64,000 nt of DNA, taken from the NCBI GenBank assembly GCA_051859245.1, contig JBHYGA010000004.1, positions 352,001 to 416,000 of the forward strand, given 5' to 3'. Position numbers and translations under genes: made by a program. Source of the stretch: Gemmatimonadaceae bacterium. GTDB lineage: Bacteria; Gemmatimonadota; Gemmatimonadetes; Gemmatimonadales; Gemmatimonadaceae. Shown in pieces: positions 35,343 to 50,305 of this stretch. The notes below the pieces were generated by a model. It did not search any database, was not told the origin of the DNA, and saw nothing but the letters and a program-made list of their open reading frames with translations. Within the stretch, counting starts at the first letter, position 1; the number at the start of each line of letters is the position of its first letter.

Positions 35343-35828
35343 ATGATTCACGAAGTCGAAGGCGATATTCTGCTCTCGGGCGCGCACGCGATCGCGCACG
35401 GCGTTTCGCCCAACGATCACTTTGACGTTGGCTTGGCCCTCGCGCTCCGCGAAATGTGGCCGTCAATGGCCAAGGATTTCCGGCACTACGCCCATCAGGC
35501 GCATCCTACACCCGGCACGGTGTGGACCTATCCCACCGCCGACGGTCGGGTGATCTACAATCTCATCACACAGGAAGGCGAGCAGCTGCGCGGCGGCTCG
35601 TCCGGCGCGGCGTCGGTCTCCAACGTGCACCACGCGCTCAAGGCGCTGCGGGTCCAACTCGAGAAAGACGGCGTTCGAAGCCTCGCCCTTCCGCGGCTCG
35701 CCACCGGCGCCGGTCGCCTGGACTGGGCCGACGTCCGGCCGCTCATCGCGCAACAGCTCGGTGACCTGCCCATCCCCGTCTATCTGTACACCACCTTCCA
35801 CCACGGTCAGGCCGCCAAAGAGTCTTGA
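35343..35828 (+). CDS. Macro domain protein (ADP-ribose processing)
   Basis: EVEGDIL, AIAHGV, GLALAL, IYNLITQ, SLALPRLATGAGRLDW. Confidence 0.85.
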   Translation: MIHEVEGDILLSGAHAIAHGVSPNDHFDVGLALALREMWPSMAKDFRHYAHQAHPTPGTVWTYPTADGRVIYNLITQEGEQLRGGSSGAASVSNVHHALKALRVQLEKDGVRSLALPRLATGAGRLDWADVRPLIAQQLGDLPIPVYLYTTFHHGQAAKES

Positions 35829-35873
35829 CACCCTCGCATTCTGGTGCGACTTTGTTTGCCGTCCGAACAAAGT
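35825..35873 (+). promoter_or_regulatory. Promoter with ROK-type operator (left arm of glycan locus)
   Basis: TTGACA at 35825; inverted repeat ACTTTGTTTGCCGTCCGAACAAAGT at 35849-35873. Confidence 0.75.
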
Positions 35874-35933
35874 TTGACTGGGACGGCTAATTGTCCCTCC
35901 CACCCGTCTGCTCCCACCCAGGACGAGGCCCGT

Positions 35934-38900
35934 ATGAGCCCGACTCGAACGCCCCTGACCCGATCACGGGTCAGGCGCCGGTTCGCCCCCGCCGCCGCGC
36001 TTGCCGCGGCGCTGTTGCTCTCGGCGACGCCGACCATCTCGGCTCAGACGCCTCAAAACATCCGTGTGGTCAGCGACGCGTCGGGGGCCCGACTGCAGGT
36101 GAACGGTCGGGACTTCATGGTGCTCGGCATGAACTGGGACTATTTCCCGATCGGCCAGAACTACGCCTACAACTTCTGGGGCCAGTCCGACGAGTTCATT
36201 CGCACGGCGCTGGATCGGGAAATGGCGCTGCTCAAAAGCATGGGCGTCAACACGATCCGTCAATACAACGGCGTGCCACCCAAATGGGTGCGATACATCT
36301 ACGAGAACTTTGGCATCTACACCGTACTGAATCACGCGGTGGGGCGATACGGCGTGACGGTAGGCGGCGCCTACAAGGCCAATACTGACTATTCAGATCC
36401 GCGCGTGCGCGAGCTGCTCAAGGCCGAAGTCGCGGCATTGGTGGAGCAGTTCCGCGGCACACCGGGTCTGCTCATGTACATGCTCGGCAACGAAAACAAT
36501 TACGGGTTGGAATGGAAATCGGCCGAGACGGAAAACCTGCCCGTTGGCGAACGGAACGCGGCCAAGGCGCGGTATTTGTATTCGCTCTTTGGCGAGATCA
36601 TTCGGGACATCAAAACGCGTGATCCCGCGGTGCCCGTGGCAATGGCGAATGGCGACCTGCAGTACATCGACATCATTGCCGCTGAGACCAAGGGTCTCGA
36701 CGTATTCGGCACGAACGTGTACCGCGGTATTTCGTTTGGAAATCTGTTTGCCGAAGTCAAGGAGAAACTCGGGCTGCCAGTGATGTTCACGGAGTTTGGC
36801 GCCGATGCCTACAATGCCAGAGAGCGTCGCGAAGACCAGCTTACGCAGGCACGCTATCTGCTTGGCCAGTGGCAGGAGATTTACGCGCAGTCTGCCGGCA
36901 AGGGCGGCGTTGGAAATGCGATTGGTGGCATGACCTTCCAATGGTCAGACGGGTGGTGGAAGGTAGGACAGGAAACCAATCTCGATGTGCAGGACAACGA
37001 CGCCGGATGGTCGAACGAGGCGTACCGCGAAGATTTCATGCGCGGTGACAACAACATGAATGAAGAGTGGTGGGGCATCATGGCCAAAGGCCCCACCGAT
37101 GCGCAGGGTCACTTTCAGCTGTATCCGCGCGCGGCGTACTACGCGTTGCAGCGCGCGTACGCGCTCGATCCGTACGGAACTGGTACCGACGCGGCACGTA
37201 TTCGCGCGCACTTCGGCGCGATTGCACCGGCGGCGATGGAACTGCTCGCCAACGGCAATCGTGCGGCGCGCGGTGCCGAGATCGGAGATCGGTATCGCAT
37301 TGCTGGCATGCGACTCGAACTGTCGAGCTTCAATACGGGTGGCAGCAACATCAGCACGCCGGCTGAGGGGACGACGCCGAGCCCAACGGCGCGGCCTGCC
37401 GTTCGCGGATTTGATCACCTCGAGTCGTATTTCGTTGATGTGGAAGCACGACCGGCGTCGAATGTGACCGCGATGCTGTCACTCAATGTGACGGGCAACA
37501 TCCCCGACAATCCGATCAACGAACTGTTCTACGAGAATCGCGCCCGCACACGCACGCTGCTGACCGATGGCGGACCGTCTGTAAGCACCGAGGGACTGGA
37601 GCGTTTGCGTGTGTACCGCGCGAGTTTGCGCTGGGACGAGCGCGATTTCCGTCTTGACGGTTTCTATCGTACCGGGCATTACCACTGGGGTTACGAAGGC
37701 GACTTCTTTGGCATGTACCGTGAAGCGAACTACGGCGCCAATATTGACATTTATGGTGGTGAAGCACCGCTCGGCGTGGAGTTCACCGGAAAGCGCGCAC
37801 TGTCGGGACTCAAGCTGGCCGTGGGTCCGGAGCTCTGGTGGGGCGCGAACCCCGCGGTACTCGCGAAGTACCGCAAGCAAGTGGGTCGCTTTATGGTGAC
37901 GGGTGTGTATCAGGAAGATCTGGCGCAACGGGGGGCGACGTCGAGCTCGTTCGCTATCCCGCAGCCGCAAGTGCGCGCCACCACGATGCACGTTGCAACC
38001 ACGGTGGGACCCGCTGGCGTGGAGCTGGGCGGTATCTGGGGTGGCAATACACGTGTGGGTCGCACGTTCCAGATTGCCGATGGTGAGCCCGGCAACTATC
38101 GCGTGCTGCAGGATCGTGTGAAAGACAGCGATGCACTTGGTGCGAAAGCCAAGATCACGATCTCAAGTGGCCGCTGGAACTGGTACGCGCAAGGCGCAGC
38201 GATGGGCCTGGTTGCTGACGGTGGACAAACGTCAACGATGACGTTCACCGGATGGGGACTGAAGGACAGCGGTATGGGCAATCAGTGGAATGCGCTGAGC
38301 GGCTTTACGTATTCTGTTGGCAACGTGCAGATTGCGCCCAACTTTTTGTGGCAGAAGCCGATTGTTGGTCCCGTGCCGAGTGATGTGCCTGCGCCCGGCC
38401 GACCGCGCAACATTCTTGATGATCCGTTCTCGGTGCGATGGAATCGTGAAACGGTTGGCGCGGAGTTGTTGCTCACGTTTGATCCCACGCCGGCGACGTA
38501 CATGCATCTGTGGGATTCCGACACGCGGGAAGACGCGCGCCTCGCGGGCACACTTGGATTCACGTATCGCCACTTGCCCACCACGCAGGACGCCGCGATT
38601 GGTATTCTCGCCGACGGACGCACGTTTTTTGCCTTTCCGGGCGCTGCACCAGCACAGGACCTGTGGGAAGTGCGCAGCCGCGTGGTATCGCGCGTAGGTC
38701 AGGATGTACGTGTGATCGCCAATCTGTTTGGCGGTACAGCACAGGCCAATGGTGACAGCGATCGTTTGCTGCGTCGTTACGGCGGCGAGCTGCGCGCGGT
38801 GCGGAATCAGATCAAAGTGGCTGCCTCGGCCAAGTTCAACGATTGGGGACCGTTCGACTATCATCGCGACTTCAACCTCACGTTCCCCGAGCAGTACATG

Positions 38901-39119
38901 GCCGATGTGTCATACGTGCTCGGCATTCCCAACTGGACAGACGCGCCGGCTACACGGTTTGGCATTCGTGGCACGTGGCGATCACTCGACCGTTTCTCGC
39001 CGCGGTATTGTCCGGCCGAAGTACCCAATGCACTGGGTACGCCCACGTGCGATCCTACTGCTCCGGGTGCGCGCGGTTCAGAGTGGGAGATTCGCACGTA
39101 CCTCACGGTTGGTTGGTGA
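35934..39119 (+). CDS. Clan GH-A (GH2/GH158-like) glycoside hydrolase fused to a probable outer-membrane beta-barrel
   Basis: Signal peptide; MGVNTIRQY, LGNE (acid/base), FTEFG (nucleophile); about 600-aa amphipathic beta C-region ending EIRTYLTVGW. Confidence 0.75.
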   Translation: MSPTRTPLTRSRVRRRFAPAAALAAALLLSATPTISAQTPQNIRVVSDASGARLQVNGRDFMVLGMNWDYFPIGQNYAYNFWGQSDEFIRTALDREMALLKSMGVNTIRQYNGVPPKWVRYIYENFGIYTVLNHAVGRYGVTVGGAYKANTDYSDPRVRELLKAEVAALVEQFRGTPGLLMYMLGNENNYGLEWKSAETENLPVGERNAAKARYLYSLFGEIIRDIKTRDPAVPVAMANGDLQYIDIIAAETKGLDVFGTNVYRGISFGNLFAEVKEKLGLPVMFTEFGADAYNARERREDQLTQARYLLGQWQEIYAQSAGKGGVGNAIGGMTFQWSDGWWKVGQETNLDVQDNDAGWSNEAYREDFMRGDNNMNEEWWGIMAKGPTDAQGHFQLYPRAAYYALQRAYALDPYGTGTDAARIRAHFGAIAPAAMELLANGNRAARGAEIGDRYRIAGMRLELSSFNTGGSNISTPAEGTTPSPTARPAVRGFDHLESYFVDVEARPASNVTAMLSLNVTGNIPDNPINELFYENRARTRTLLTDGGPSVSTEGLERLRVYRASLRWDERDFRLDGFYRTGHYHWGYEGDFFGMYREANYGANIDIYGGEAPLGVEFTGKRALSGLKLAVGPELWWGANPAVLAKYRKQVGRFMVTGVYQEDLAQRGATSSSFAIPQPQVRATTMHVATTVGPAGVELGGIWGGNTRVGRTFQIADGEPGNYRVLQDRVKDSDALGAKAKITISSGRWNWYAQGAAMGLVADGGQTSTMTFTGWGLKDSGMGNQWNALSGFTYSVGNVQIAPNFLWQKPIVGPVPSDVPAPGRPRNILDDPFSVRWNRETVGAELLLTFDPTPATYMHLWDSDTREDARLAGTLGFTYRHLPTTQDAAIGILADGRTFFAFPGAAPAQDLWEVRSRVVSRVGQDVRVIANLFGGTAQANGDSDRLLRRYGGELRAVRNQIKVAASAKFNDWGPFDYHRDFNLTFPEQYMADVSYVLGIPNWTDAPATRFGIRGTWRSLDRFSPRYCPAEVPNALGTPTCDPTAPGARGSEWEIRTYLTVGW

Positions 39120-41335
39120 CCACGCGTAGCACAGGTCGTTCCGTGTCTGTGGAGCAGCAGATCACCGCGCTGCTTGCCCGCATGACACTGGACGAAAAGA
39201 TCGGGCAGTTGGCGCAGGTGAACGCGGCCGGCGGTCACGTGCCCGATCACCTGCGTGATGCGATTCGTGAAGGGCGCATTGGTTCGGTGCTGAATGAAGT
39301 GCACGTTGAGACCGTCAACGAGCTGCAGCGACTCGCGGTCCACGAAAGTCGGCTCGGTATTCCGCTGCTGATCGGGCGCGATGTTATTCACGGGTTCACT
39401 ACCGTATTTCCGATTCCGCTGGGGCAAGCGGCCAGCTGGAATCCTGCGTTGGTAGAAGAAGGCGCGCGCATCGCCGCGTACGAAGCGGCCGCGTGCGGTG
39501 TGAACCTGACGTTCGCGCCCATGATCGACATTGCGCGCGATCCTCGGTGGGGACGTGTGGCCGAATCACTCGGAGAAGATCCGCATCTTACCGGCGTGCT
39601 GGGCGCGGCCATGGTTCGCGGCTTTCAGGGTGACGACCTGGCACACGATGGCAGTATTGCCGCGTGTGCGAAACACTTTGCGGGCTACGGCGCAAGCGAG
39701 AGTGGTCGCGACTACAACACCACCAACATTCCCGAGAACGAGTTGCGAAACGTCTATCTGCCGCCGTTCAAGGCGGCGGTGGATGCGGGCGTCGCCAGTC
39801 TCATGACCTCGTTCTCCGATCTGGATGGTGTGCCTGCGTCGGCCAATACCTTCTTGCTCAGACAGGTGCTGCGCGACGAGTGGCGCGCCGATGCCATGGT
39901 GATCAGTGACTGGGAATCCATTCGGCAACTGGCCGTACACGGGTTCACGGAGAACGACCGCGAATCGGCGTACCAGGCGGCCACGGCGGGCGTTGATATG
40001 GAAATGGCCAGCACCACGTACGCTGATCATCTCGCGTCGCTTGTGCGCGAGGGGCGAGTGACTGAACAAACGGTCGATGCGTTGGTGCGGAATGTGTTGC
40101 GCGTGAAGTTTCGTCTGGGATTGTTCGACAACGCGCAAACGAATGCCTCCACGTATGCGCCCGCGGCAAACGCAGAACACTTGAAGGCCGCATACAACGC
40201 CGCGGTAGCGAGCGCGGTACTGCTCAAGAACGACGATTGGGCGCTGCCGCTCGATGTCGACTCGTTGGAGCGCATTGCCGTGATCGGCCCCCTGGCGGAT
40301 GATCCGTACGAGCAACTTGGCACGTGGATCTTTGATGGCGACGCGGCACACAGTCGCACGGTGCTGCAGAGCATTCGCGAGTATGTGGGCGACCGCGCTA
40401 CGGTAGAGTTTGCGCGCGGCGTGCACACCACGCGCAGTCGCGGTCACGACGCGTTTGACGACGCGGTCGCGCTGGCTGCACGCGCTGATGTAACGATCCT
40501 GGTGCTTGGTGAAGAAGCGATTCTGTCGGGCGAGGCGCACTGCCGCGCCGACATTACGTTGCCCGGTGCACAGCAGGCGTTGCTGGAAGCCGTGTCGGCC
40601 ACGGGCACCAAAGTGATTCTGGTGCTGATGGCCGGCCGGCCACTCGCGCTTGAGGAGGCCGTGCGACATGCGCCGGCGATTCTGTATATGTGGCACCCCG
40701 GGACCATGGGTGGTGCCGCGATCTCTGACTTGTTGTTCGGTGTAGCGTCGCCAAGTGGTAAACTACCGGTCACGTTTCCGCGGGTGACGGGGCAAATCCC
40801 TATCTATTACGCGCACAAACACACCGGCAAACCCGCCACGGCTGAGTCATTCATTCACATGGAAGACATTGAGCCGCGGGCGCATCAGGTGTCGGTGGGC
40901 AACACCTCTTTTCATCTGGATGCCGGCTTCACGCCGCTCTTTCCGTTCGGGTTTGGTCTGTCGTACTCGCATGTGGAGTACGAGCACATGCAGTGCAGCA
41001 CGGCAGTGCTCACCATGAGCGGCCGCATTACGATCAGTGCTGACGTGGTGAACGTTGGTCCGCGTGCTGTTGAGGAAGTGGTGCAGCTATATGTGCGCGA
41101 CCTCGTCGGCGATGTGACACGACCGGTGAAGGAACTCAAAGGGTTTACTCGTGTGCGCCTTGAACGCGGTGAACGTCGCCACGTGTCCTTCACACTGACA
41201 CCACGCGATCTTGCGTTTTACGGGCGGGCGCAGCGCCTGATCGTGGAGCCGGGTCGCTTTCATGTCTGGATTGGAGGCAGTTCCAATCCGGAGCTGCGCG
41301 CTGAGTTCACGTTGGTCGACGACACGACGCACTAG
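39116..41335 (+). CDS. GH3 beta-glucosidase (BglX-like), no signal peptide
   Basis: DVIHG, RDPRWGR.AE, KHFAGYG, ISDW, PSGKLPVTFP, C-terminal Fn3-like EVVQLY; GTGA overlap with upstream gene. Confidence 0.93.
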   Translation: MTTRSTGRSVSVEQQITALLARMTLDEKIGQLAQVNAAGGHVPDHLRDAIREGRIGSVLNEVHVETVNELQRLAVHESRLGIPLLIGRDVIHGFTTVFPIPLGQAASWNPALVEEGARIAAYEAAACGVNLTFAPMIDIARDPRWGRVAESLGEDPHLTGVLGAAMVRGFQGDDLAHDGSIAACAKHFAGYGASESGRDYNTTNIPENELRNVYLPPFKAAVDAGVASLMTSFSDLDGVPASANTFLLRQVLRDEWRADAMVISDWESIRQLAVHGFTENDRESAYQAATAGVDMEMASTTYADHLASLVREGRVTEQTVDALVRNVLRVKFRLGLFDNAQTNASTYAPAANAEHLKAAYNAAVASAVLLKNDDWALPLDVDSLERIAVIGPLADDPYEQLGTWIFDGDAAHSRTVLQSIREYVGDRATVEFARGVHTTRSRGHDAFDDAVALAARADVTILVLGEEAILSGEAHCRADITLPGAQQALLEAVSATGTKVILVLMAGRPLALEEAVRHAPAILYMWHPGTMGGAAISDLLFGVASPSGKLPVTFPRVTGQIPIYYAHKHTGKPATAESFIHMEDIEPRAHQVSVGNTSFHLDAGFTPLFPFGFGLSYSHVEYEHMQCSTAVLTMSGRITISADVVNVGPRAVEEVVQLYVRDLVGDVTRPVKELKGFTRVRLERGERRHVSFTLTPRDLAFYGRAQRLIVEPGRFHVWIGGSSNPELRAEFTLVDDTTH

Positions 41336-41366
41336 TGCGTACCACCATCAACTTTCTGTTACTCCC

Positions 41367-43139
41367 ATGACCGCAAGACTCGCGGATCGCGAGACAATCG
41401 CCTACGTGGAAGCGCTGCTTTCCCGTCTTACGCTCGAGCAGAAAGTCGGGCAAATGATGCAGCCCGAACGCATGGCCATCACGCCAGACGAAGTGGCGGA
41501 GTACCACATCGGCTCCGTGCTCAGCGGTGGTGGATCGGCGCCGGGTGCGAATACGGCCGCCGACTGGATCGCGATGAACGACGCGTACTGGATGGCGTCC
41601 ATGCGCAACGCACCAGGCCGCGTACCGATTCCGCTGTTATACGGCGTGGATGCGGTACACGGCCACGCCAACGTGCTCGGCGCGACGGTTTTTCCGCACA
41701 ACATCGGGCTTGGCGCCACGCGCGATCCTGACTTGATGGAACGCATCGCGCAGATCACAGCGCGCGAGGTGCTGGCCACCGGTGTGGACTGGACGTTTGC
41801 GCCGACACTCGCCGTGGCCAAGCACATCTACTGGGGGCGCACGTACGAGAGTTTTTCGGATGATCCGGCACTTGTGTCGTCGTATGCCGGCGCGCTCGTG
41901 CGCGGACTGCAGCAGGGTTTCGGTCGCGATGGTGTTGTAGCGTGCGCCAAGCACTGGGTTGGTGACGGCGGTACGACCAACGGCCGCGACCAGGGCAACA
42001 CTGCGATCTCCGAAGAGGAACTGGAGCGCACGCACATGTCGCCCTATTTGCCAGCGCTGAAAGAAGGAGTCCTCACGGTGATGGCGTCGTTCAACAGCTG
42101 GAACGGCGTAAAATGTCACGGCAATCGCTACCTGCTCACCGAGGTTCTCAAGGAGCGCCTGGGCTTTGACGGGTTTGTGATTTCCGACTGGGACGGTGTG
42201 GACTACTTGTCGGATGATCCCGCAGAAGCCGTGGCGATGGCGGCAAACGCTGGCGTTGACATGTTCATGGTCTCAGTCGAGTGGAAGCGCTGTCTGGCAC
42301 ACTTGCTGGAGCACGCGCGGTCGGGTGTTGTGCCCATGTCGCGCATTGATGATGCCGTGCGCCGCATTCTCACCGTGAAGCATCGCTACGGATTGTTCGA
42401 TCGACCGCGTCCCGCGGAGCGGTATTGGTCGACGGAGCCGTGTCTTGGCGCCGCCGAACATCGCGAGGTGGCGCGTGAAGCGGTTCGCAAATCGCTAGTG
42501 CTACTGCAGAACAACAACGGAGTACTGCCGCTGGATCGTTCGGCGCGCATTCTCGTGGCGGGCAAGAACGCGGACAACCGCGGGCGTCAATGCGGTGGCT
42601 TTACCGTGGCGTGGCAGGGCACGAGTGGCAACGAACAGATCGTCGGTGGTACCTCAATCTGGGAAGGCATCAAGCAAGTTGCGCCGCATGCGCACCTCAG
42701 CGTGGATGGCAGCGCGGCCAATGCCGCAGCGCACGATGTGGCCATCGTGGTGATCGGCGAACGGCCGTACGCGGAAGGCATGGGCGACATTCGTCCGCCC
42801 GGTACCGTCGCCCCAGGCTCAAGCCCTGAAGGGCGCACGGCCAAACTTGATGCGTATGGTCAAACCATTGAGCACGCCGTCTCGCATCCCGAAGATCTGG
42901 CCACGATTCGTGCCATTACGCGTCAGGGCATACCGGTGATTGCGGTGCTCGTATCTGGTCGCCCTCTCATTGTAGATGCCGAGCTGTCAGAGACGTCGGC
43001 GTTTGTGGCCGCGTGGTTGCCCGGCTCAGAAGGTCAGGGAGTGGCTGATGTGTTGTTTGGTGATCATCCGTTCACCGGCGTGCTGCCGTTTGCGTGGCCG
43101 CATATTTCGACGCGTTGGCCGCGTGGTTACGGGCTGTAG
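41367..43139 (+). CDS. GH3 exo-beta-glucanase/beta-glucosidase, no signal peptide
   Basis: GSVLSGGGS, DAVHGH, FPHNIGLGA, WGRTYES, KHWVGDGGT, ISDW, GERPYAEG.GD, AAWLPGSEG. Confidence 0.93.
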   Translation: MTARLADRETIAYVEALLSRLTLEQKVGQMMQPERMAITPDEVAEYHIGSVLSGGGSAPGANTAADWIAMNDAYWMASMRNAPGRVPIPLLYGVDAVHGHANVLGATVFPHNIGLGATRDPDLMERIAQITAREVLATGVDWTFAPTLAVAKHIYWGRTYESFSDDPALVSSYAGALVRGLQQGFGRDGVVACAKHWVGDGGTTNGRDQGNTAISEEELERTHMSPYLPALKEGVLTVMASFNSWNGVKCHGNRYLLTEVLKERLGFDGFVISDWDGVDYLSDDPAEAVAMAANAGVDMFMVSVEWKRCLAHLLEHARSGVVPMSRIDDAVRRILTVKHRYGLFDRPRPAERYWSTEPCLGAAEHREVAREAVRKSLVLLQNNNGVLPLDRSARILVAGKNADNRGRQCGGFTVAWQGTSGNEQIVGGTSIWEGIKQVAPHAHLSVDGSAANAAAHDVAIVVIGERPYAEGMGDIRPPGTVAPGSSPEGRTAKLDAYGQTIEHAVSHPEDLATIRAITRQGIPVIAVLVSGRPLIVDAELSETSAFVAAWLPGSEGQGVADVLFGDHPFTGVLPFAWPHISTRWPRGYGL

Positions 43140-43214
43140 CACACAGCGTGTGTAGCATCCGAACCCACATTACGACCGAACAACGTCGGGAACACATACC
43201 GTTGCAGTGATCAC

Positions 43215-43240
43215 GAGGGGACCGCACACGCGGTCCCCTC
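43215..43240. terminator. GC hairpin between convergent operons
   Basis: GAGGGGACCGC-ACAC-GCGGTCCCCTC, 11-bp perfect stem; no clear U-tract. Confidence 0.55.
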
Positions 43241-43253
43241 ACTGCGTTTCGCA

Positions 43254-44804
43254 CTATGTCGCCAACGCCGGTCCAGGATTGCCACGTCGTGCTTCGAGCT
43301 GCTCTCGCACTTCGCGCGCTCGTGCTTCGGTGATCGGATACGTTGCGACGGCCCAGATGGCGAGGCCCGACGTCACCATGGGTATGACGGCATCACACAA
43401 CCGCATCAGGAAGATCGTGTTTTCGGTTTGCGTACCGCCGAGCGAGACATCAAAACCGGTCGCGTTCAGCAGATAGCCGCCGGCCGCGAGCGCTGCGGCC
43501 ATGCCAAGCTTTACCACCCACCAGAAGATCGAGCCGAACATTCCTTCGCGCCGCTGATAGGTCTCCACTTCATCAGCGTCTACAACATCGGCAATCATTG
43601 ATCCCATGAGCGTGAACAATCCGCCAAGCCCAAACGCCATCAGTGGCACCGGCAGCATCAGCAACATCGGATACTTCGGATTATAGCAGAACCACTTGAG
43701 ACCGTAGCCAAGAATGGAAAGGCCTGTGCTCACAAAGAATGCTTTGCGTTTGCCGATTCTTGTGCTGAGCCAGGTAATGAAAAAAATGACGCCGAACGTT
43801 GAGGCCGCGCCGAGCGTACCGGCGTATCCAGCGTAGCGCGCACCCAACTCCTGATCGCCGCCAAACACGTAGTAGATGATCACGTACGTCTGAAACGACG
43901 AGATCATGATGAAGCCATTGAACACGAGGAATGTGGCCACGCACAACTTGATGAACGGCTTTGAGCGCAGCGTAGTGGCAAAGCCCTTGCCGAACTCTTT
44001 CATGTTCCGGCCAAACGCGGCGAAGCGGGATTCGCGCTTGGTCGGCACGTTGGGGTCTGCCGACGCCATCACAAATCGCTCGCGCAGGAAGATTGCGGGA
44101 ATGACTCCGATCATGATCGTGGCGACACCGATACCGATGGCCAGGCCTTTGGCACCGGCGATCTGATTGGGAAACCACGGTTTGTACGTCATGATCCAGA
44201 GAAACCATGGCGACACCAGATACGCGAGCTGACCAATGAAATTCTGCACGCCCATCAGGCGCGTGCGCTCGTGATAGTCGGGTGTGAGTTCGTAACCCAG
44301 CGCAACCCATGGCGTTGCGTAGACTGTGTACGCCAGGTAAAAAATGTTCGAGCCGGTCAAAAAGAACCAGAAATAGAACGACTCACTTCTTCCGCCAGGC
44401 AGCTGCCACAACAGGGCGAAGATGATACCAGACGCAATGGCCCCGGCGAAGATGTACGGGCGACGCCTTCCCCAACGCGACGATGTGTTATCCGAGATGT
44501 AACCCATCATCGGATCAGTGAGCGCGTCGAGAATCCGCGGAAGCGCACCGAGCAAGCCCACCAATGCGGGATTCATGCCCAGTCCGAGATTGAGCACGAT
44601 GACCATGCCACCAATAGCGGCCGCGAGCAGGTTGTTTACGAACGCACCCGACCCGTAGGCGAGCTTTCGCGCAAACGAGATGCGATCCGCCGCGGCGGTC
44701 GAGTACTGCGCGGTGAACCCAGTGTGCCCCGAATCGTCGATGCGCGCGTGCCACGCGGCAATGGCAAGCTTCCAGAGGTTGCGCCCGCGCGAAGCGATAC
44801 TCAT
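43254..44804 (-). CDS. GPH-family (MFS) glycoside:cation symporter
   Basis: KLAYG.G, DALTDPMMGYISD.T.SRWGRRRPY, ELTPDYHERT, MIADVVD...RREG. Confidence 0.92.
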   Translation of the reverse strand: MSIASRGRNLWKLAIAAWHARIDDSGHTGFTAQYSTAAADRISFARKLAYGSGAFVNNLLAAAIGGMVIVLNLGLGMNPALVGLLGALPRILDALTDPMMGYISDNTSSRWGRRRPYIFAGAIASGIIFALLWQLPGGRSESFYFWFFLTGSNIFYLAYTVYATPWVALGYELTPDYHERTRLMGVQNFIGQLAYLVSPWFLWIMTYKPWFPNQIAGAKGLAIGIGVATIMIGVIPAIFLRERFVMASADPNVPTKRESRFAAFGRNMKEFGKGFATTLRSKPFIKLCVATFLVFNGFIMISSFQTYVIIYYVFGGDQELGARYAGYAGTLGAASTFGVIFFITWLSTRIGKRKAFFVSTGLSILGYGLKWFCYNPKYPMLLMLPVPLMAFGLGGLFTLMGSMIADVVDADEVETYQRREGMFGSIFWWVVKLGMAAALAAGGYLLNATGFDVSLGGTQTENTIFLMRLCDAVIPMVTSGLAIWAVATYPITEARAREVREQLEARRGNPGPALAT

Positions 44805-45592
44805 GGTACGGTCTCGTACACCCGCACCCAGTCCACCAACATGGTTTGCGGAAAGCGCGTTTGTGCATCAGGCGCACCCACAAACGTGCCACCAACGGCC
44901 ACGTTGAGAATGATGTAGAACGGATGGTCAAACACCCACTCACCTCGCACATCACCGCGGCGCACGGTGTGGTAGAGTGTGCCGTCGACGAAGAAATCAA
45001 TGCGGGCATCAGACCATTCGATGCTGAACTCATGGAAATCGTCGTCGAAACGCGCCTGCTGTAACTCGTAGCGCCGCGTGATCGCGTTGCCGCCAGAGTA
45101 TCCCGGTCCATGCACACTACCGAGCACAACCCGCGGCTCCTGCCCGCGGTATTCCATCACATCGATTTCACCAGTCTGCGGCCAGCCGACAACATCAATG
45201 TCTGCACCCAACAACCAGAACGCGGGCCAAATGCCCTGACCAACCGGCAACTTGATGCGCGCTGCAATGCGACCGTACTGAAACTCGCGCCGCCCTTTGG
45301 TGGTGATGCGAGCCGATGTATAGGCCCGTCCTTCGAATGATTCCGCACGAGCGGTAATGGCCAGATTGCCGCTGCCATCAAGCGACGCGTTAGCGGCCCG
45401 ATTGGTGTCGTACTCGAGCTGTGCGTTACCCCAATCGGTGCCCACATCGAACTGCCAGTTGGCAGCGCTGGGCAACGTACCGGCCGTGCCTTCAAACTCA
45501 TCTTCCCAAACGAGCGTCCACGACGGACTGGGATCAGTGCACCCGAAGAGCGAAGCGGCAAGCGCCGCGAGTAGTACAGCCTGTCGGGTCAT
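44801..45592 (-). CDS. GH16 endo-beta-1,3-glucanase (laminarinase-type) lipoprotein
   Basis: Lipobox LFGC; LVWEDEF, YTSARI, G.WPAFW, WP..GEIDVME, ILNVAVGG, VDWVRVY. Confidence 0.93.
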   Translation of the reverse strand: MTRQAVLLAALAASLFGCTDPSPSWTLVWEDEFEGTAGTLPSAANWQFDVGTDWGNAQLEYDTNRAANASLDGSGNLAITARAESFEGRAYTSARITTKGRREFQYGRIAARIKLPVGQGIWPAFWLLGADIDVVGWPQTGEIDVMEYRGQEPRVVLGSVHGPGYSGGNAITRRYELQQARFDDDFHEFSIEWSDARIDFFVDGTLYHTVRRGDVRGEWVFDHPFYIILNVAVGGTFVGAPDAQTRFPQTMLVDWVRVYETVP

Positions 45593-45613
45593 GATCGCAG
45601 GGAAGAGGGCGCG

Positions 45614-46864
45614 CTAGCGCGCGCCGATGGTGGGAAAGAGCGACGGATCGTTCAGCGCCGCTTCAAGCACAAGCGTGGCGGCGCCAACAGCAACGCCGAG
45701 TGGGCCGAGTTCACTGTGCCGGATTTCAGACGCGGCAACAGCGCTCACAAACGTCCGACGAAGCACAACTTCACGTAGCGGACCGATCAGTCGGTGACCA
45801 ACGCGCGTCAGCCCACCGCCAATAATGACGGCGGCAGGATTCATCAGGTTGAGCAGCCCCGCGATGGCAATACCGAGGTATTCCGCCGCTTCGCACACCA
45901 CCTGGACCGCGAGCGGATCGTCAGTGATCGCGGCTGATTCGATCGCTTCAATCGTGAGTGACGATGTGCCATGCAGCGATGACGCAGGAAACTCCGGTAA
46001 CAGCGCGCGCGCGCGTTCGACCAAGGCATTCGCACCAACGAATGTGACGAGACATCCCCGGTTGCCGCAGTTGCACACGGCGCCGCGCGGATCAATCGCC
46101 ACGTGACCGATTTCTCCGGCGACGCCGGTAGCTCCGCGCCGCACGCGTCCATCAATCACATGCCCCGACCCAATGCCGGTTGCCACCTTGATGTACGCGA
46201 AGTCATTAAAACCACGGCCCGCTCCCCACCACTGCTCCGCCAACGCGCCAAGGTTCGCGTCATTGTCAATGAAAAGCGGCAGCGCAAACTGCGTTTGCAA
46301 CGCTTCGAACCCGTTGCGTCCACCCCAGTCGGGCATAGCCAGCGGTGAGAGGCGCTCCGGGTGACGCGGATCAACCGGGCTTGGCATGGCGATGCCAATG
46401 CCGAGTAAGCGATTGGGTGCACCGTGCCACTGCGCAATGCAGCGTGCAATCAGCTCGGCCACCAGCGTGCGGGTTCCGGCGGGATCGCGTCGTACAGGCC
46501 ATTCGCGATACTCAGAAGCGAGCACGCGGCCGCGCAGGTTGGTGAGCACTACCGTGATGTGCGTCGCGCCAACGTCCACGCCAATAATGCCGCAGGCATC
46601 ATCCTGAAACTCGAGATTGATCGGTCGTCGTCCGCCGCGCGATTCGCCAATGCCCGCTTCGGACACGAGTTCGGTGGCGATCAGGAATCCCACCAACTCC
46701 GACACGGTGGAGCGCGAGAGATCTTCACGACGCGCGATTTCGGCGCGCGAGATGGTGCGCTCCTTCCAGATCAGTCGCAGTACCGCATCCGCCAACGCGG
46801 ACGGACGCGGTACAACAGTCGGGGCAACACCAACGTCGGCGTCACTCATGATCTGGTCAGTCAT
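45614..46864 (-). CDS. ROK-family transcriptional repressor
   Basis: N-terminal HTH ISRAEIA...LSRSTVS, GGRRP; DNDANLGALAE, GEIGH, CNCGNRGCL. Confidence 0.93.
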   Translation of the reverse strand: MTDQIMSDADVGVAPTVVPRPSALADAVLRLIWKERTISRAEIARREDLSRSTVSELVGFLIATELVSEAGIGESRGGRRPINLEFQDDACGIIGVDVGATHITVVLTNLRGRVLASEYREWPVRRDPAGTRTLVAELIARCIAQWHGAPNRLLGIGIAMPSPVDPRHPERLSPLAMPDWGGRNGFEALQTQFALPLFIDNDANLGALAEQWWGAGRGFNDFAYIKVATGIGSGHVIDGRVRRGATGVAGEIGHVAIDPRGAVCNCGNRGCLVTFVGANALVERARALLPEFPASSLHGTSSLTIEAIESAAITDDPLAVQVVCEAAEYLGIAIAGLLNLMNPAAVIIGGGLTRVGHRLIGPLREVVLRRTFVSAVAASEIRHSELGPLGVAVGAATLVLEAALNDPSLFPTIGAR

Positions 46865-46907
46865 CGTGTCTCCGTTCAGGCACGGAGAGCACGTGCCGAG
46901 GTCCATG

Positions 46908-49328
46908 TCATTTGTGCAAGAGCACGTTGTCGACATAGACCGTATTCGGATCGGCCACCAGGATCAACTGCGCGAGATGGCCCCTGGTGGTGAGTCCGGT
47001 GAACTGCGAGAGCGGTACATCAAGGCGCGTCCACTGCCCGGTGCGGAGCCCTGGCGTGGTCGCGGCCGTGAGCGTGATCTCATGCTCGCGGTCATCACCA
47101 CCACCGAACGCGCCATTCGCGCCAAAGTCCACCAGCTTGATTTTGAACGTTGCCGGCGCTGCGGTGGGATCTGCTGTCCAGATATCCAGCGAGAAGTGCG
47201 TCATGGCCGTGGCATTGATCGGGCTCGACGTGAACTCAATCCCGGCAAACACCAGATTCGTGTACTTCTTCACCGTGTTGCCAGCAATCTGCACGTCTTC
47301 CACATCAGCGTTGTCCCACTGGGCCGACCACGTGTTCACCGTGACGTTGGTGTAGCTGTCGCTGAACAGTGAAATCACATCGGCCGCGGCAAATGTTGGC
47401 GCGGGCGCTGCGGTTGTTGGCGCGGTCGGCACCACGTTGGAATAGAAATACAGGTTGTCGAGGTAGACCGTGTTCGGATCACTCACGAAGATCAGCTGCG
47501 CCAGATGACCGCGTGTGACCAGCCCGGTGAACGCACTGAGCGGAATGTCCAGACTCGTCCACTCGCCCGTGCGGATACCAGGCGTGGACGCGGCGTCGAG
47601 CGTGAGTTCATGCTCAACATCATCGCCGCCACCGAACGCACCGTTGGCGCCAAAGTCCACCAGCTTGATCTTGAAGATCGCGGGCAACGCAGTGGCATCG
47701 GGGGTCCAGAAGTCCACATGGAAACCCGTCATCGCGGTGGCGTTGACTGTTGGTGCCGTGAACTCGATGCCGGCGAAGGTGAAGTTTGTGTATTTCTTGA
47801 CGTTGTTGCCGGCGATCTGCACGTCTTCAAGATCGGCGTCGTCCCACGGCGCTGACCACGTGGACACCGGCACGTTGGTGTACGTGTCGCTGAAGAGCGA
47901 GATCACACTCGACGCCGGACGTGTGGGAGCCGGCGCGGCGGTGGTTGGAACAGACACCGGTGGTGGCGGCGCCTTGTAGAAATACAGATTATCGAGATAC
48001 AGCGTGGAGCTGGAACTCGTAATGATCATTTGCGCGAGGTTGCCGCGCGCGTTGAGGCCCGTGAACGAGGAGAGCGGAATCTCCACCGTGCTCCACGCGT
48101 TGGCCGTGAGCCCCGACGACACCGTCACTTCATGTTCGCTGTCGTCACCGCCGCCAAACACACCGTTCGCACCGAAGTTGACGAGCTTGACGCGGAACGA
48201 GGAGGTGTTGCGAAGGAAGACATTGAGATGCAGATGCGTCATCGCCGCTGCGTTGACGGTCCGCGTGATGAACTCGATGCCAGCGAACGAGAGATTCGCG
48301 TATTTCTTGGTGTCGTTGCCCGCGATCTGGACATCGGACACATCGGCCATGTCCCAGTCGGCCGACCATTTATCGACGGGCACGTTGGTGTACGCGTTGC
48401 TGAACAGCGAGACGACATCGGCCGCCACGCGTGTTGGTGTGGGCGCCGCCGTGGTTGGCGGGCTGAGCGCGTTGATTGTGACGGCACCCGCGGCCGCTGT
48501 TTCGCCGAGCGCCGCGCTCACCGTGGCGGAGCCCGGTCCGACTACCGAAATGGCGCCGGTTGGTGTTACCGCTGCAACGGCCGCATTTGATGAGCGAAAG
48601 GTGAAATACGCGGCGGCCGCTTCGACCACCACGTCACGCCCGTCCACATCGAAGGTGACCGTGGTGCCGGTCACATCGACTGTGGCGCCGACTTCGCCGC
48701 TGAGTGTGGCCGACGCGATGGCGGGTCGGGTGTTGCGAATCGTGCCCAGTGTCTCAAAACGGATTTCATCAATCCAGAGATCGTACCCCACGCCGTTCTC
48801 CGGCCCCTCGGCAAAGAAGAACATGCCGCGCTCTTCCATGAGTTTGCTGGCCAGTGGAAGTGGAATCACCACTTTTTGCCAGGAGGTTGTGAGCGGAATA
48901 CCGCCGCGCTGGGCGGTAAAGCGCGATTCGCCGGTGTTATCGTTGGCGAAGCCGGCCACGTCGAGCGTGGCACTGCGGCTGGCCCGCGCGTAGAACGTGA
49001 GCGCGTCATAGGCACTCAGGTCGCGCGCCACGTTGGCGACGAAGGCACCGCCGGCGTACGAACCGGCCGGATCGCCTACCGATGGAATCGTGATTTTGAG
49101 CGCCGATGTGCCGCGGAACTTGACGCCGGGATCGATCGCGACCGCGTCCACCTTGGAGCCGGCGAACGCCTGGAATGAGACGCCTGCTGCGTATCCGTCG
49201 CCGAAGATATCCGGTTCGCTTGGGAAGGGCGCAAGATCGAGTGAACTGATATCGCGGCTGCAGGCGGCGAGGATCAGCGACACCCCAACCAACGCGAGAA
49301 CGTGGCGTGAGGACGATCGCGGGTGCAT
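46908..49328 (-). CDS. Surface glycan-binding-like lipoprotein with three tandem ~170-aa repeats
   Basis: Lipobox LAAC; Ig-like linker; 3 x PTTAAP.PT....V.SLFS..YTNV....WSA.WD...KLV.FGANG.FGGGDD.EHE. Confidence 0.8.
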   Translation of the reverse strand: MHPRSSSRHVLALVGVSLILAACSRDISSLDLAPFPSEPDIFGDGYAAGVSFQAFAGSKVDAVAIDPGVKFRGTSALKITIPSVGDPAGSYAGGAFVANVARDLSAYDALTFYARASRSATLDVAGFANDNTGESRFTAQRGGIPLTTSWQKVVIPLPLASKLMEERGMFFFAEGPENGVGYDLWIDEIRFETLGTIRNTRPAIASATLSGEVGATVDVTGTTVTFDVDGRDVVVEAAAAYFTFRSSNAAVAAVTPTGAISVVGPGSATVSAALGETAAAGAVTINALSPPTTAAPTPTRVAADVVSLFSNAYTNVPVDKWSADWDMADVSDVQIAGNDTKKYANLSFAGIEFITRTVNAAAMTHLHLNVFLRNTSSFRVKLVNFGANGVFGGGDDSEHEVTVSSGLTANAWSTVEIPLSSFTGLNARGNLAQMIITSSSSTLYLDNLYFYKAPPPPVSVPTTAAPAPTRPASSVISLFSDTYTNVPVSTWSAPWDDADLEDVQIAGNNVKKYTNFTFAGIEFTAPTVNATAMTGFHVDFWTPDATALPAIFKIKLVDFGANGAFGGGDDVEHELTLDAASTPGIRTGEWTSLDIPLSAFTGLVTRGHLAQLIFVSDPNTVYLDNLYFYSNVVPTAPTTAAPAPTFAAADVISLFSDSYTNVTVNTWSAQWDNADVEDVQIAGNTVKKYTNLVFAGIEFTSSPINATAMTHFSLDIWTADPTAAPATFKIKLVDFGANGAFGGGDDREHEITLTAATTPGLRTGQWTRLDVPLSQFTGLTTRGHLAQLILVADPNTVYVDNVLLHK

Positions 49329-49395
49329 CTGCGTGCTCCGAGGAGGGGGCGGAGGTCCGCATCCACGAGCGACCGGGCAGGCGCTGGCAGACGGG

Positions 49396-49445
49396 CTTTG
49401 TTTGGCTAGCGAACAAAGTATGCGGCTCAAGGCGGACGCTGTCAA
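49396..49445 (-). promoter_or_regulatory. Promoter with ROK-type operator (right arm of glycan locus)
   Basis: Minus strand TTGACA-N17-CATACT; inverted repeat CTTTGTTTGGCTAGCGAACAAAG at 49396-49418. Confidence 0.78.
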
Positions 49446-49597
49446 GAACGAGTCGGGTGCGAAGAGACGGAAATTGCCCTCGCCTCACGCGGAGGCACCC
49501 GTCATACTTCCCCACGACCCGATGGCGTGTGCCATCGCGTTCCGGCACCGACGGACGAACTGTTCGCTGTCGACCGACGTCCCTCCACTCCCGCGCT

Positions 49598-50305
49598 GTG
49601 TCGCCCTCGTCCAAAACTGTCCGTCCCGTGTCGCGCGCTGCCGCGAAGAACGCTGTCGACGTTGCCCGTCCCTTCGAAGTGCGCCGCTCGCGAATTCAAG
49701 GTCGTGGTGTGTTCGCCACGCAGCAGATTCGCAAAGGCAAGAAGATCATTGAGTATGTGGGTCAGCCGATCACGCATGAAGAAGCGGATCGACGCTACGA
49801 TGATGCAGAAGGTCGCCATCATACGTTTCTGTTCGTGTTGAACGACGACACTGTGCTTGATGCGCGCTACGGCGGAAACGATGCGCGATTTCTGAACCAT
49901 TCCTGCGATCCGAACTGCGAGACGGAAATCGACAACGACCGGATCTGGATCAAGTCGATCAAGCCCATCGCTCCCGAAACAGAGCTGGTGTACGACTATC
50001 GTTTCGAATGGGACGATGCCTACGAGCCGGAAGACGTGCGCTATTACGCGTGTCGTTGCGGCAGTGCGAAGTGTCGAGGCACGATTTTGCGCGTGCCCGT
50101 GTACCTGCGGAAAACGGTGCGTGAATGGTTGGCGGGCAACGATGTGCCCAAGCCACGCAAGCCGCGCAAGAAAGTGGCGAAGAAAGTGGCGAAGAAGGTG
50201 ACGAAGAAGGCCACTCGCAAGGTTGGAAAAACGGGTGCGAAAAAAGCGGTCCGGAAAACCACTCGCAAAGCCGCGAAAAAAACCACGAAGAAAAACGCGA
50301 CGTGA
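49598..50305 (+). CDS. SET-domain lysine methyltransferase with post-SET domain and Lys-rich tail
   Basis: IQGRGVFA, IIEYVG, ARFLNHSCDPNC, ELVYDY, CRCGSAKCRG; tail KKVAKKVAKKVTKK; start approximate. Confidence 0.92.
   Translation: MSPSSKTVRPVSRAAAKNAVDVARPFEVRRSRIQGRGVFATQQIRKGKKIIEYVGQPITHEEADRRYDDAEGRHHTFLFVLNDDTVLDARYGGNDARFLNHSCDPNCETEIDNDRIWIKSIKPIAPETELVYDYRFEWDDAYEPEDVRYYACRCGSAKCRGTILRVPVYLRKTVREWLAGNDVPKPRKPRKKVAKKVAKKVTKKATRKVGKTGAKKAVRKTTRKAAKKTTKKNAT

Follow-up and report, generated by a model that had tools for sequence, protein, structure and literature searches.

Gene content, probable substrate and proposed regulation of the locus

A 64,000-nucleotide stretch of a Gemmatimonadaceae genome (hereafter the window; G000:C4:352001-416000, contig JBHYGA010000004.1) carries a cluster of seven genes that likely serves the use of beta-1,3-glucans such as laminarin, judging from the sequences of its products, and at its centre is a gene for a protein in which a glycosidase domain is fused to a predicted outer-membrane barrel. 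The host genome comprises 4,698,531 bases and is 99.9% complete, and the closest titled relative of the fusion protein also comes from a Gemmatimonadaceae genome (96% identity). The genes form two convergent operons, in the order and orientation given by a preliminary description of this DNA (Table 1). On the forward strand the fusion is followed by two genes of glycoside hydrolase family 3 (GH3), and on the reverse strand a repeat lipoprotein is followed by a ROK protein, a GH16 enzyme and a GPH transporter; the starts given for the fusion, both GH3, the ROK and the repeat lipoprotein genes are revised, likely ones. The hairpin described between the operons is present in their 114-bp gap (z −5.1, with none of 200 shuffles as stable), lacks a clear U-tract and is absent from the list of the terminator scan. 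Among 14 relatives, a strong hairpin (z −3.6 or lower) was found in six and a weak one or none in four, and the gap was too short in the other four.

Table 1. Features of the probable beta-1,3-glucan locus, in window positions.
Feature	Position	Strand	Remarks
TTGACA, −35-like hexamer of the left promoter	35825..35830	+	seen directly; unlisted by the promoter scan, −10 match poor
Palindromic operator 1	35849..35873	strand-neutral	matrix score 35.3, the genome's best; putative ROK site
Fusion protein, 1061 aa	35934..39119	+	signal peptide; GH-A TIM barrel ~43-428; helical linker 432-451; predicted barrel 454-1060
GH3 beta-glucosidase, BglX type	39116..41335	+	without signal peptide; GTG start, overlapping the fusion stop, is the probable one
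GH3, exo-beta-glucanase type	41367..43139	+	without signal peptide; closest solved relative 3RRX
G+C-rich hairpin, possible shared terminator	43204..43245	strand-neutral	folding z against shuffles
GPH-family (MFS_2) sugar:cation symporter, inner membrane	43254..44804	−	PF13347
GH16 laminarinase-type lipoprotein	44801..45592	−	lipobox Cys18; PF00722
ROK-family repressor	45614..46864	−	N-terminal helix-turn-helix; domain profiles
Lipoprotein, 806 aa	46908..49328	−	lipobox Cys23; CBM30-like + Ig region 24-290, then three repeats
Palindromic operator 2	49395..49419	strand-neutral	matrix score 32.6
Sigma-70-like promoter of the right operon	49417..49445	−	10/12 match; −10 touches the operator

The assignment to beta-1,3-glucans is supported by the closest solved relatives of two of the enzymes, which are beta-1,3-glucanases for GH16 (E 6e-79) and the exo-1,3/1,4-beta-glucanase 3RRX for the second GH3 (E 2e-161). 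The first GH3 scores 686 bits with NF011678 (BglX; cut-off 666), and the transporter matches PF13347 (E 2e-59) and stays under the cut-off of TIGR00792. Both GH3 proteins begin at the catalytic domain, with no hydrophobic leader visible by eye in the window copies or in aligned relatives. This lack of leaders, together with a GH3 fused to the C-terminus of the transporter in 2 of 80 relatives, speaks for the cytoplasmic location proposed earlier.

In a sample of 80 loci around the fusion, one per genome and 28 of them shorter than 15 kb, the neighbours were GH16 (53), the repeat lipoprotein (53), GPH (39), GH3 (32), a protein of 1150 aa (25), GH1 (20), GH17 (11) and GH30 (7). The 1150-aa protein had no Pfam match, and from its size and its place in published loci it may be GH149-like. 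Of these loci, 15 repeat the whole layout and 41 have two or more convergent partners. As a side observation, two Ignavibacteria-titled loci hold GPH-GH3 exo-glucanase fusions of about 1110 aa (L059:1412-4735 and L067:2248-5586), a second type of transporter-glycosidase fusion. A family-5 ABC system, often with GH1 near, takes the place of the GPH transporter in loci L006, L039, L041, L043, L052, L053, L061 and L074, so the inner-membrane step appears to be exchangeable.

The two operons share an operator, as had been proposed. Its core, TTTGTT-N9-AACAAA, has two exact matches in the 4,698,531 bases of the genome where 0.027 were expected, one upstream of each operon, and when the genome was scanned with a matrix derived from 90 sites of related loci, both scored far above every other site. 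Of sigma-70-like promoters the scan listed 3 in the region, where chance alone would give 4.3, so that only the position of the right-operon promoter is informative. The ROK protein has a helix-turn-helix N-terminal to its ROK domain, and its best scores are with NagC/Mlc, which marks it as the repressor type rather than a ROK kinase; a palindromic operator lies at each promoter. The motif was found in 37 of 37 related loci with a ROK gene and in 62 of the 80 loci overall. Of the flavobacterial regions and metagenome loci described below, which have other regulators, 1 of 56 and 0 of 80 contain it. The motif is thus tied to the ROK protein by association, and the protein is likely to bind it.

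The fusion protein and its predicted partner lipoprotein

The N-terminal domain of the fusion is a TIM barrel of clan GH-A, with the acid/base NE after strand 4 and the nucleophile E after strand 7. These residues (N186, E187 and E287) are invariant in 163/163, 163/163 and 166/166 aligned copies and align with the catalytic NE and E of BuGH158, as given in the accessible text of PMC7157763. In a profile search GH158 (E 6e-10) came ahead of GH2 (3e-5), and fold comparison ranked GH157, GH2, GH5 and GH158 nearly equal. With the GH158 and GH157 endo-beta-1,3-glucanases the domain shares the clan GH-A barrel, the positions of the catalytic motifs and the setting in beta-glucan loci, but it is only 17-21% identical to them and lacks their C-terminal Ig domain. 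Membership in GH158 itself was rejected: the single-sequence search did not return GH158, the profile value compares with 5e-91 for the true GH158 genes that stand separately in loci with the fusion, and the barrel replaces the Ig domain. Databases label the fusion only "glycosidase" or "GH2 TIM barrel protein", and GH2 was rejected as well, since PF02836 gave 16.6 bits (cut-off 21) and the model contains no flanking domains; some homologs of the fusion weakly exceed this cut-off. The domain is an intact clan GH-A enzyme, nearest to GH158/GH157 and not assignable to a family.

The C-terminal ~600 residues of the fusion matched no Pfam family and no PDB chain by sequence. Modelled alone on 149 sequences, they form 24 long strands with a predicted local distance difference test score (pLDDT) of 93.7 and a predicted template modelling score of 0.90, and a model of the whole fusion also gives 24 long strands. 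The strands are antiparallel and amphipathic, alternating in hydrophobicity. Links after even strands have 2-10 residues (one has 20) and those after odd strands 7-37, so that short turns lie on one side of the barrel. The protein has a signal peptide (read by eye) and the terminal strand residue is hydrophobic or aromatic, with variation at the C-terminal end: flavobacterial barrels end in ...IGK, and the last residue is K, R or Q in 37 of the 149 rows. No Plug match (PF07715) was found in the fusion or in the enzyme-free barrels described below, and no TIGR04056 match either; a control SusC scored 841 bits. In the whole-protein Foldseek comparison the only barrel-type rows shown were PfeA (E 1.5e-9), with a poor fit. 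The possibility that the fusion belongs to the SusC-like TonB-dependent transporters was rejected given that it lacks the plug and TIGR04056, has 24 predicted strands rather than 22 and has a partner lipoprotein without a SusD match. The models instead predict a plug-free 24-stranded outer-membrane barrel of an unclassified family.

In outer-membrane barrels the short-turn side is periplasmic. Both termini of the protein lie on this side in the model, with the long loops opposite, and the GH domain would therefore hang below the pore in the periplasm, unless the linker threads the lumen. This changes the reading of the preliminary description, since the standard barrel rule predicts that the fused enzyme faces the periplasm and not the cell surface.

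The repeat lipoprotein consists of an N-terminal CBM30-like and Ig region (residues 24-290; CBM, carbohydrate-binding module) and three repeats of 165-175 aa that are 54-75% identical and likely bind glucan. A profile of the repeats matched no CBM in the PDB, a search that did not take in the CBM102/CBM103 reference sequences of Christiangramia forsetii. No SusD match (PF07980/PF14322) was found in the protein; its architecture resembles that of a surface glycan-binding protein described in the available part of 10.1101/2023.09.07.556657. The first 290 residues were found in 32 of 32 flavobacterial regions with the fusion and in 0 of 24 without it. A complex model of this region with the barrel scored 0.62, against 0.00 for the best of three controls, by a measure on which 116 of 157 solved complexes attain the mark, as do 2 of 215 mismatched pairs; contact agreement between runs was at least 84% and the pLDDT of the partner at least 87. 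The modelled contacts join residues just past the lipidated Cys to the long barrel loops 713-727, 810-829 and 897-902, which would put the lipoprotein outside the cell, at the place that SusD takes on SusC. The model thus supports docking of the N-terminal region on the outer loops, in agreement with the surface position assumed earlier.

In loci of Longimicrobiales type the GPH transporter contains an inserted module of ~210 aa that resembles the lipoprotein repeats and follows residue 136 (numbered as in the window; L014:16280-18397, L017:17356-19452, L022:14969-17038, L033:15053-17119 and L040:15041-17134), in what should be the periplasmic loop between helices 3 and 4. In the metagenome loci an unannotated lipoprotein of ~245 aa (L204:11804-12544 and 50 similar open reading frames in L137-L216), which has no Pfam match and is unrelated to the window lipoprotein, comes after the fusion in 46 of 49 cases but after the enzyme-free barrel in only 5 of 19 rows. 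It is a candidate second lid family.

Distribution of the barrel and relation to TonB-dependent receptors

Relatives of the fusion with a length near 1050 aa number at least 4978, and GTDB species contain at least 598 of its loci; the titles name Gemmatimonadota, Krumholzibacteria, Eisenbacteria, Ignavibacteria, Myxococcota and Bacteroidota. The barrel was detected in 26 of 301 genomes sampled from the phylum Gemmatimonadota, a patchy distribution. P0124, P0227 and P0256 are longer or rearranged members with extra modules; they include CBM_4_9 in P0227 and a 758-aa form from a Spirochaetia record, which places the barrel also in Spirochaetota.

None of the 36 TonB plug matches of the genome lies in the window, as had been stated, and none is preceded by the operator in the genome scan proposed at that time; the nearest on the contig are ~80 kb and ~215 kb beyond the window. 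No open reading frame at window 29-58 kb resembled a TonB receptor, and for SusD no profile search of the genome was made. TonB receptors are also rare around relatives of the fusion, with matches in 3 of the 80 loci, one of them of metal type, and in 1 of the 80 metagenome loci. In L017:14305-17316 a metal-type TonB-dependent receptor stands between both operons, its best matches being ZnuD/haem models, under their cut-off.

To compare the fusion with SusC we used 151 genomes from the family to which a Flavobacterium-titled locus belongs; GH149-like genes are present in 58 of them, at 60 places in all. For 56 of these places a region reaching at most 20 kb upstream was taken; the query genome, one fragment and two genes that lie at the start of a contig were not used. 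The fusion was present in 32 of the 56 regions and was followed in all 32 by its lipoprotein and GH16, which parallels the cassette of SusC, SusD, binding protein and GH16. A BguR-type regulator, labelled from Pfam domains and size (cf. the accessible part of 10.64898/2026.01.10.698779), was in view in 41 regions, of which 17 had only the fusion, 13 only SusC, 11 both and none neither, where 5.4 were expected (Fisher p 1.5e-4, a value overstated by the kinship of the genomes). The 15 regions without the regulator in view comprised nine with neither, three with only the fusion, two with only SusC and one with both. SusD genes were found elsewhere in all five flavobacterial genomes tested. The earlier view of a system free of SusC and SusD holds for the cluster in the window, but the module is not peculiar to Gemmatimonadota; it is common in laminarin-type loci of Bacteroidota, often beside SusC/D.

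The 80 metagenome loci contained 56 fusions, 21 enzyme-free barrels with a leader of their own (~11 distinct) and three genes cut by contig ends. In the enzyme-free forms strand 1 directly follows the leader, and 16 of the 21 have GH16, GH1 or the binding protein of a family-5 ABC system as a neighbour, with LacI or glucokinase frequently present as well. One cluster of enzyme-free forms bears Pseudomonadales and Oceanospirillaceae names. In a quick, midpoint-rooted tree of 63 of the 149 rows the enzyme-free forms group as a single branch that arises within the fused ones (99 in the Shimodaira-Hasegawa-like approximate likelihood ratio test), which indicates that the barrel was kept without its passenger. 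A barrel without passenger is hard to explain as an anchor, but not as a sugar porin.

A stand-alone macro-domain gene (window 35343-35828), resembling the DarG N-terminus at E 1e-17 and far under the cut-off, has a stop codon that shares bases with the left promoter's −35 hexamer. The open reading frame 49307-50305 on the forward strand (region 49527-50305), which diverges from the right operon, encodes a protein with a SET domain and a C-terminal tail that is rich in Lys and Ala and resembles histone H1. A third large GH3 gene (G000:C4:344531-347053) lies 7 kb left of the window and has no operator match.

Proposed uptake route and alternatives

The reading that we favour, with somewhat better than even confidence, is a ROK-repressed regulon for the uptake and breakdown of beta-1,3-glucan, in which entry through the outer membrane is probably by the predicted plug-free 24-stranded barrel, with the lipoprotein expected outside and the glycosidase on the periplasmic side. 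The repeat lipoprotein, docked on the barrel as predicted, would hold the glucan, and the GH16 lipoprotein, presumably nearby, would cut its chains into oligomers that may diffuse through the barrel without TonB. If the predicted topology is correct, the fused GH-A domain would trim the emerging oligomers, lowering their periplasmic level and sizing them for import by the GPH symporter, and the two GH3 enzymes would release glucose in the cytoplasm. Imported sugar might then lift the ROK repressor off both operators. That this pathway is complete, and independent of TonB, we infer. The barrel as the likely entry route, already suggested in the preliminary description, is supported by the replacement pattern, by the enzyme-free barrels in sugar operons and by the 24-strand model.

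An alternative is that the barrel only anchors or displays the GH-A domain, like an autotransporter with the linker helix in the pore, and serves as a scaffold for the lipoproteins, while the oligomers take another way in, through general porins or a TonB receptor that is not linked to the locus. A helical linker precedes the barrel of autotransporters as it precedes strand 1 here; the fusion coexists with SusC in 12 of the 56 regions, the genomes have many TonB receptors elsewhere, and the predicted docking would also fit a scaffold. We nevertheless consider this rather unlikely, because passenger-free barrels persist in sugar-transport operons, the barrel has twice as many predicted strands as an autotransporter barrel has strands, none of the 41 regulator-headed loci lacks both systems and no TonB receptor carries the operator. 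A gated or energised barrel, closed by a plug that is either a loop or the GH domain and opened by a TonB-like motor encoded elsewhere, would agree with the large barrel and its SusD-like partner, the long conserved loops and the TonB receptor as sole barrel-type fold match. This has a slim chance, in view of the missing Plug match in fused and free forms and of the free forms that start strand 1 right after the leader; no TonB/ExbBD family was among the labelled recurrent neighbours, although no profile search for them was made. The least probable reading concerns the substrate: the system may take up another beta-glucan, or the fused domain may remodel oligomers, as a transglycosylase or a binding trap, rather than supply the import step. 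The tied fold ranks across GH-A families, one distant fusion member that matches GH72 and a transglycosylating GH17 from a similar locus (reported in the accessible part of 10.64898/2026.01.22.701063) would allow this, but the neighbours are consistently of beta-1,3-glucan families (GH16 in 53 of 80 loci, GH17 in 11 and GH30 in 7) and the profile search favours GH158 over GH2.

The proposed uptake through the barrel combines features of known systems. Like the SusC/SusD polysaccharide utilization loci for laminarin (the BguR-controlled locus of Formosa agariphila and 1,3GUL of B. uniformis), the fusion-bearing loci have a regulator, an outer-membrane barrel with a lipoprotein partner, a CBM-repeat lipoprotein, GH16, GH3 and an MFS transporter, and in 16 of the 17 fusion-only loci the fusion occupies the slot directly after the regulator (it is divergent in L088). 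The window system differs from them in that a plug and a match to the SusD fold are missing, the barrel has 24 predicted strands and is joined to an enzyme, the repressor is a ROK protein and the GH3 enzymes are probably cytoplasmic. The plug-free sugar porins LamB, ChiP, CymA and KdgM are linked to ABC or other inner-membrane transporters. With them the barrel shares the predicted plug-free channel and the co-regulated hydrolases and inner-membrane importer, and the context of the enzyme-free barrels is identical; it is larger, however, and has a fused glycosidase, a lipoprotein partner and no sequence match in Pfam or PDB. The GH17-MFS fusion of Formosa described in the accessible text of PMC6246565 is likewise a glycosidase-transporter fusion in a laminarin locus, but there the transporter is an inner-membrane carrier.

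The locus is of a known kind, and it is the candidate outer-membrane transporter at its centre that appears undescribed. Our literature search, which did not extend to subscription journals, found no paper on the barrel, and the gene may stand under another label in figures or supplements. The available parts of two sources bear on this. One reports a laminarin locus without susCD in an NS4 genome and an unclassified, highly expressed "GH0" in laminarin loci (PMC10108472). The other describes a Muricauda locus with a "GH2" after the regulator, SusC going unmentioned in that part (10.64898/2026.01.22.701063), and this "GH2" may well be the fusion.

With slightly less than even confidence, we propose that the barrel represents a new class of outer-membrane glycan importer, a TonB-free 24-stranded channel with a lipoprotein lid and a glycosidase ratchet. 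It would be an alternative to SusC/D in over half of the sampled flavobacterial laminarin-type loci and, where it is present in Gemmatimonadota, Ignavibacteria, Krumholzibacteria, Myxococcota and marine Gammaproteobacteria, the main route. SusC/D is almost the only marker by which laminarin uptake is followed, and a gene that is present in 32 of 56 regions and labelled only as a glycosidase or GH2 protein means that a common entry route may be missed. If true, the barrel route would explain the laminarin loci reported without susCD, and a channel that contains its own glycosidase would be novel as a design for transport. The barrel likely provides several bacterial phyla with a second entry route that has so far escaped recognition.

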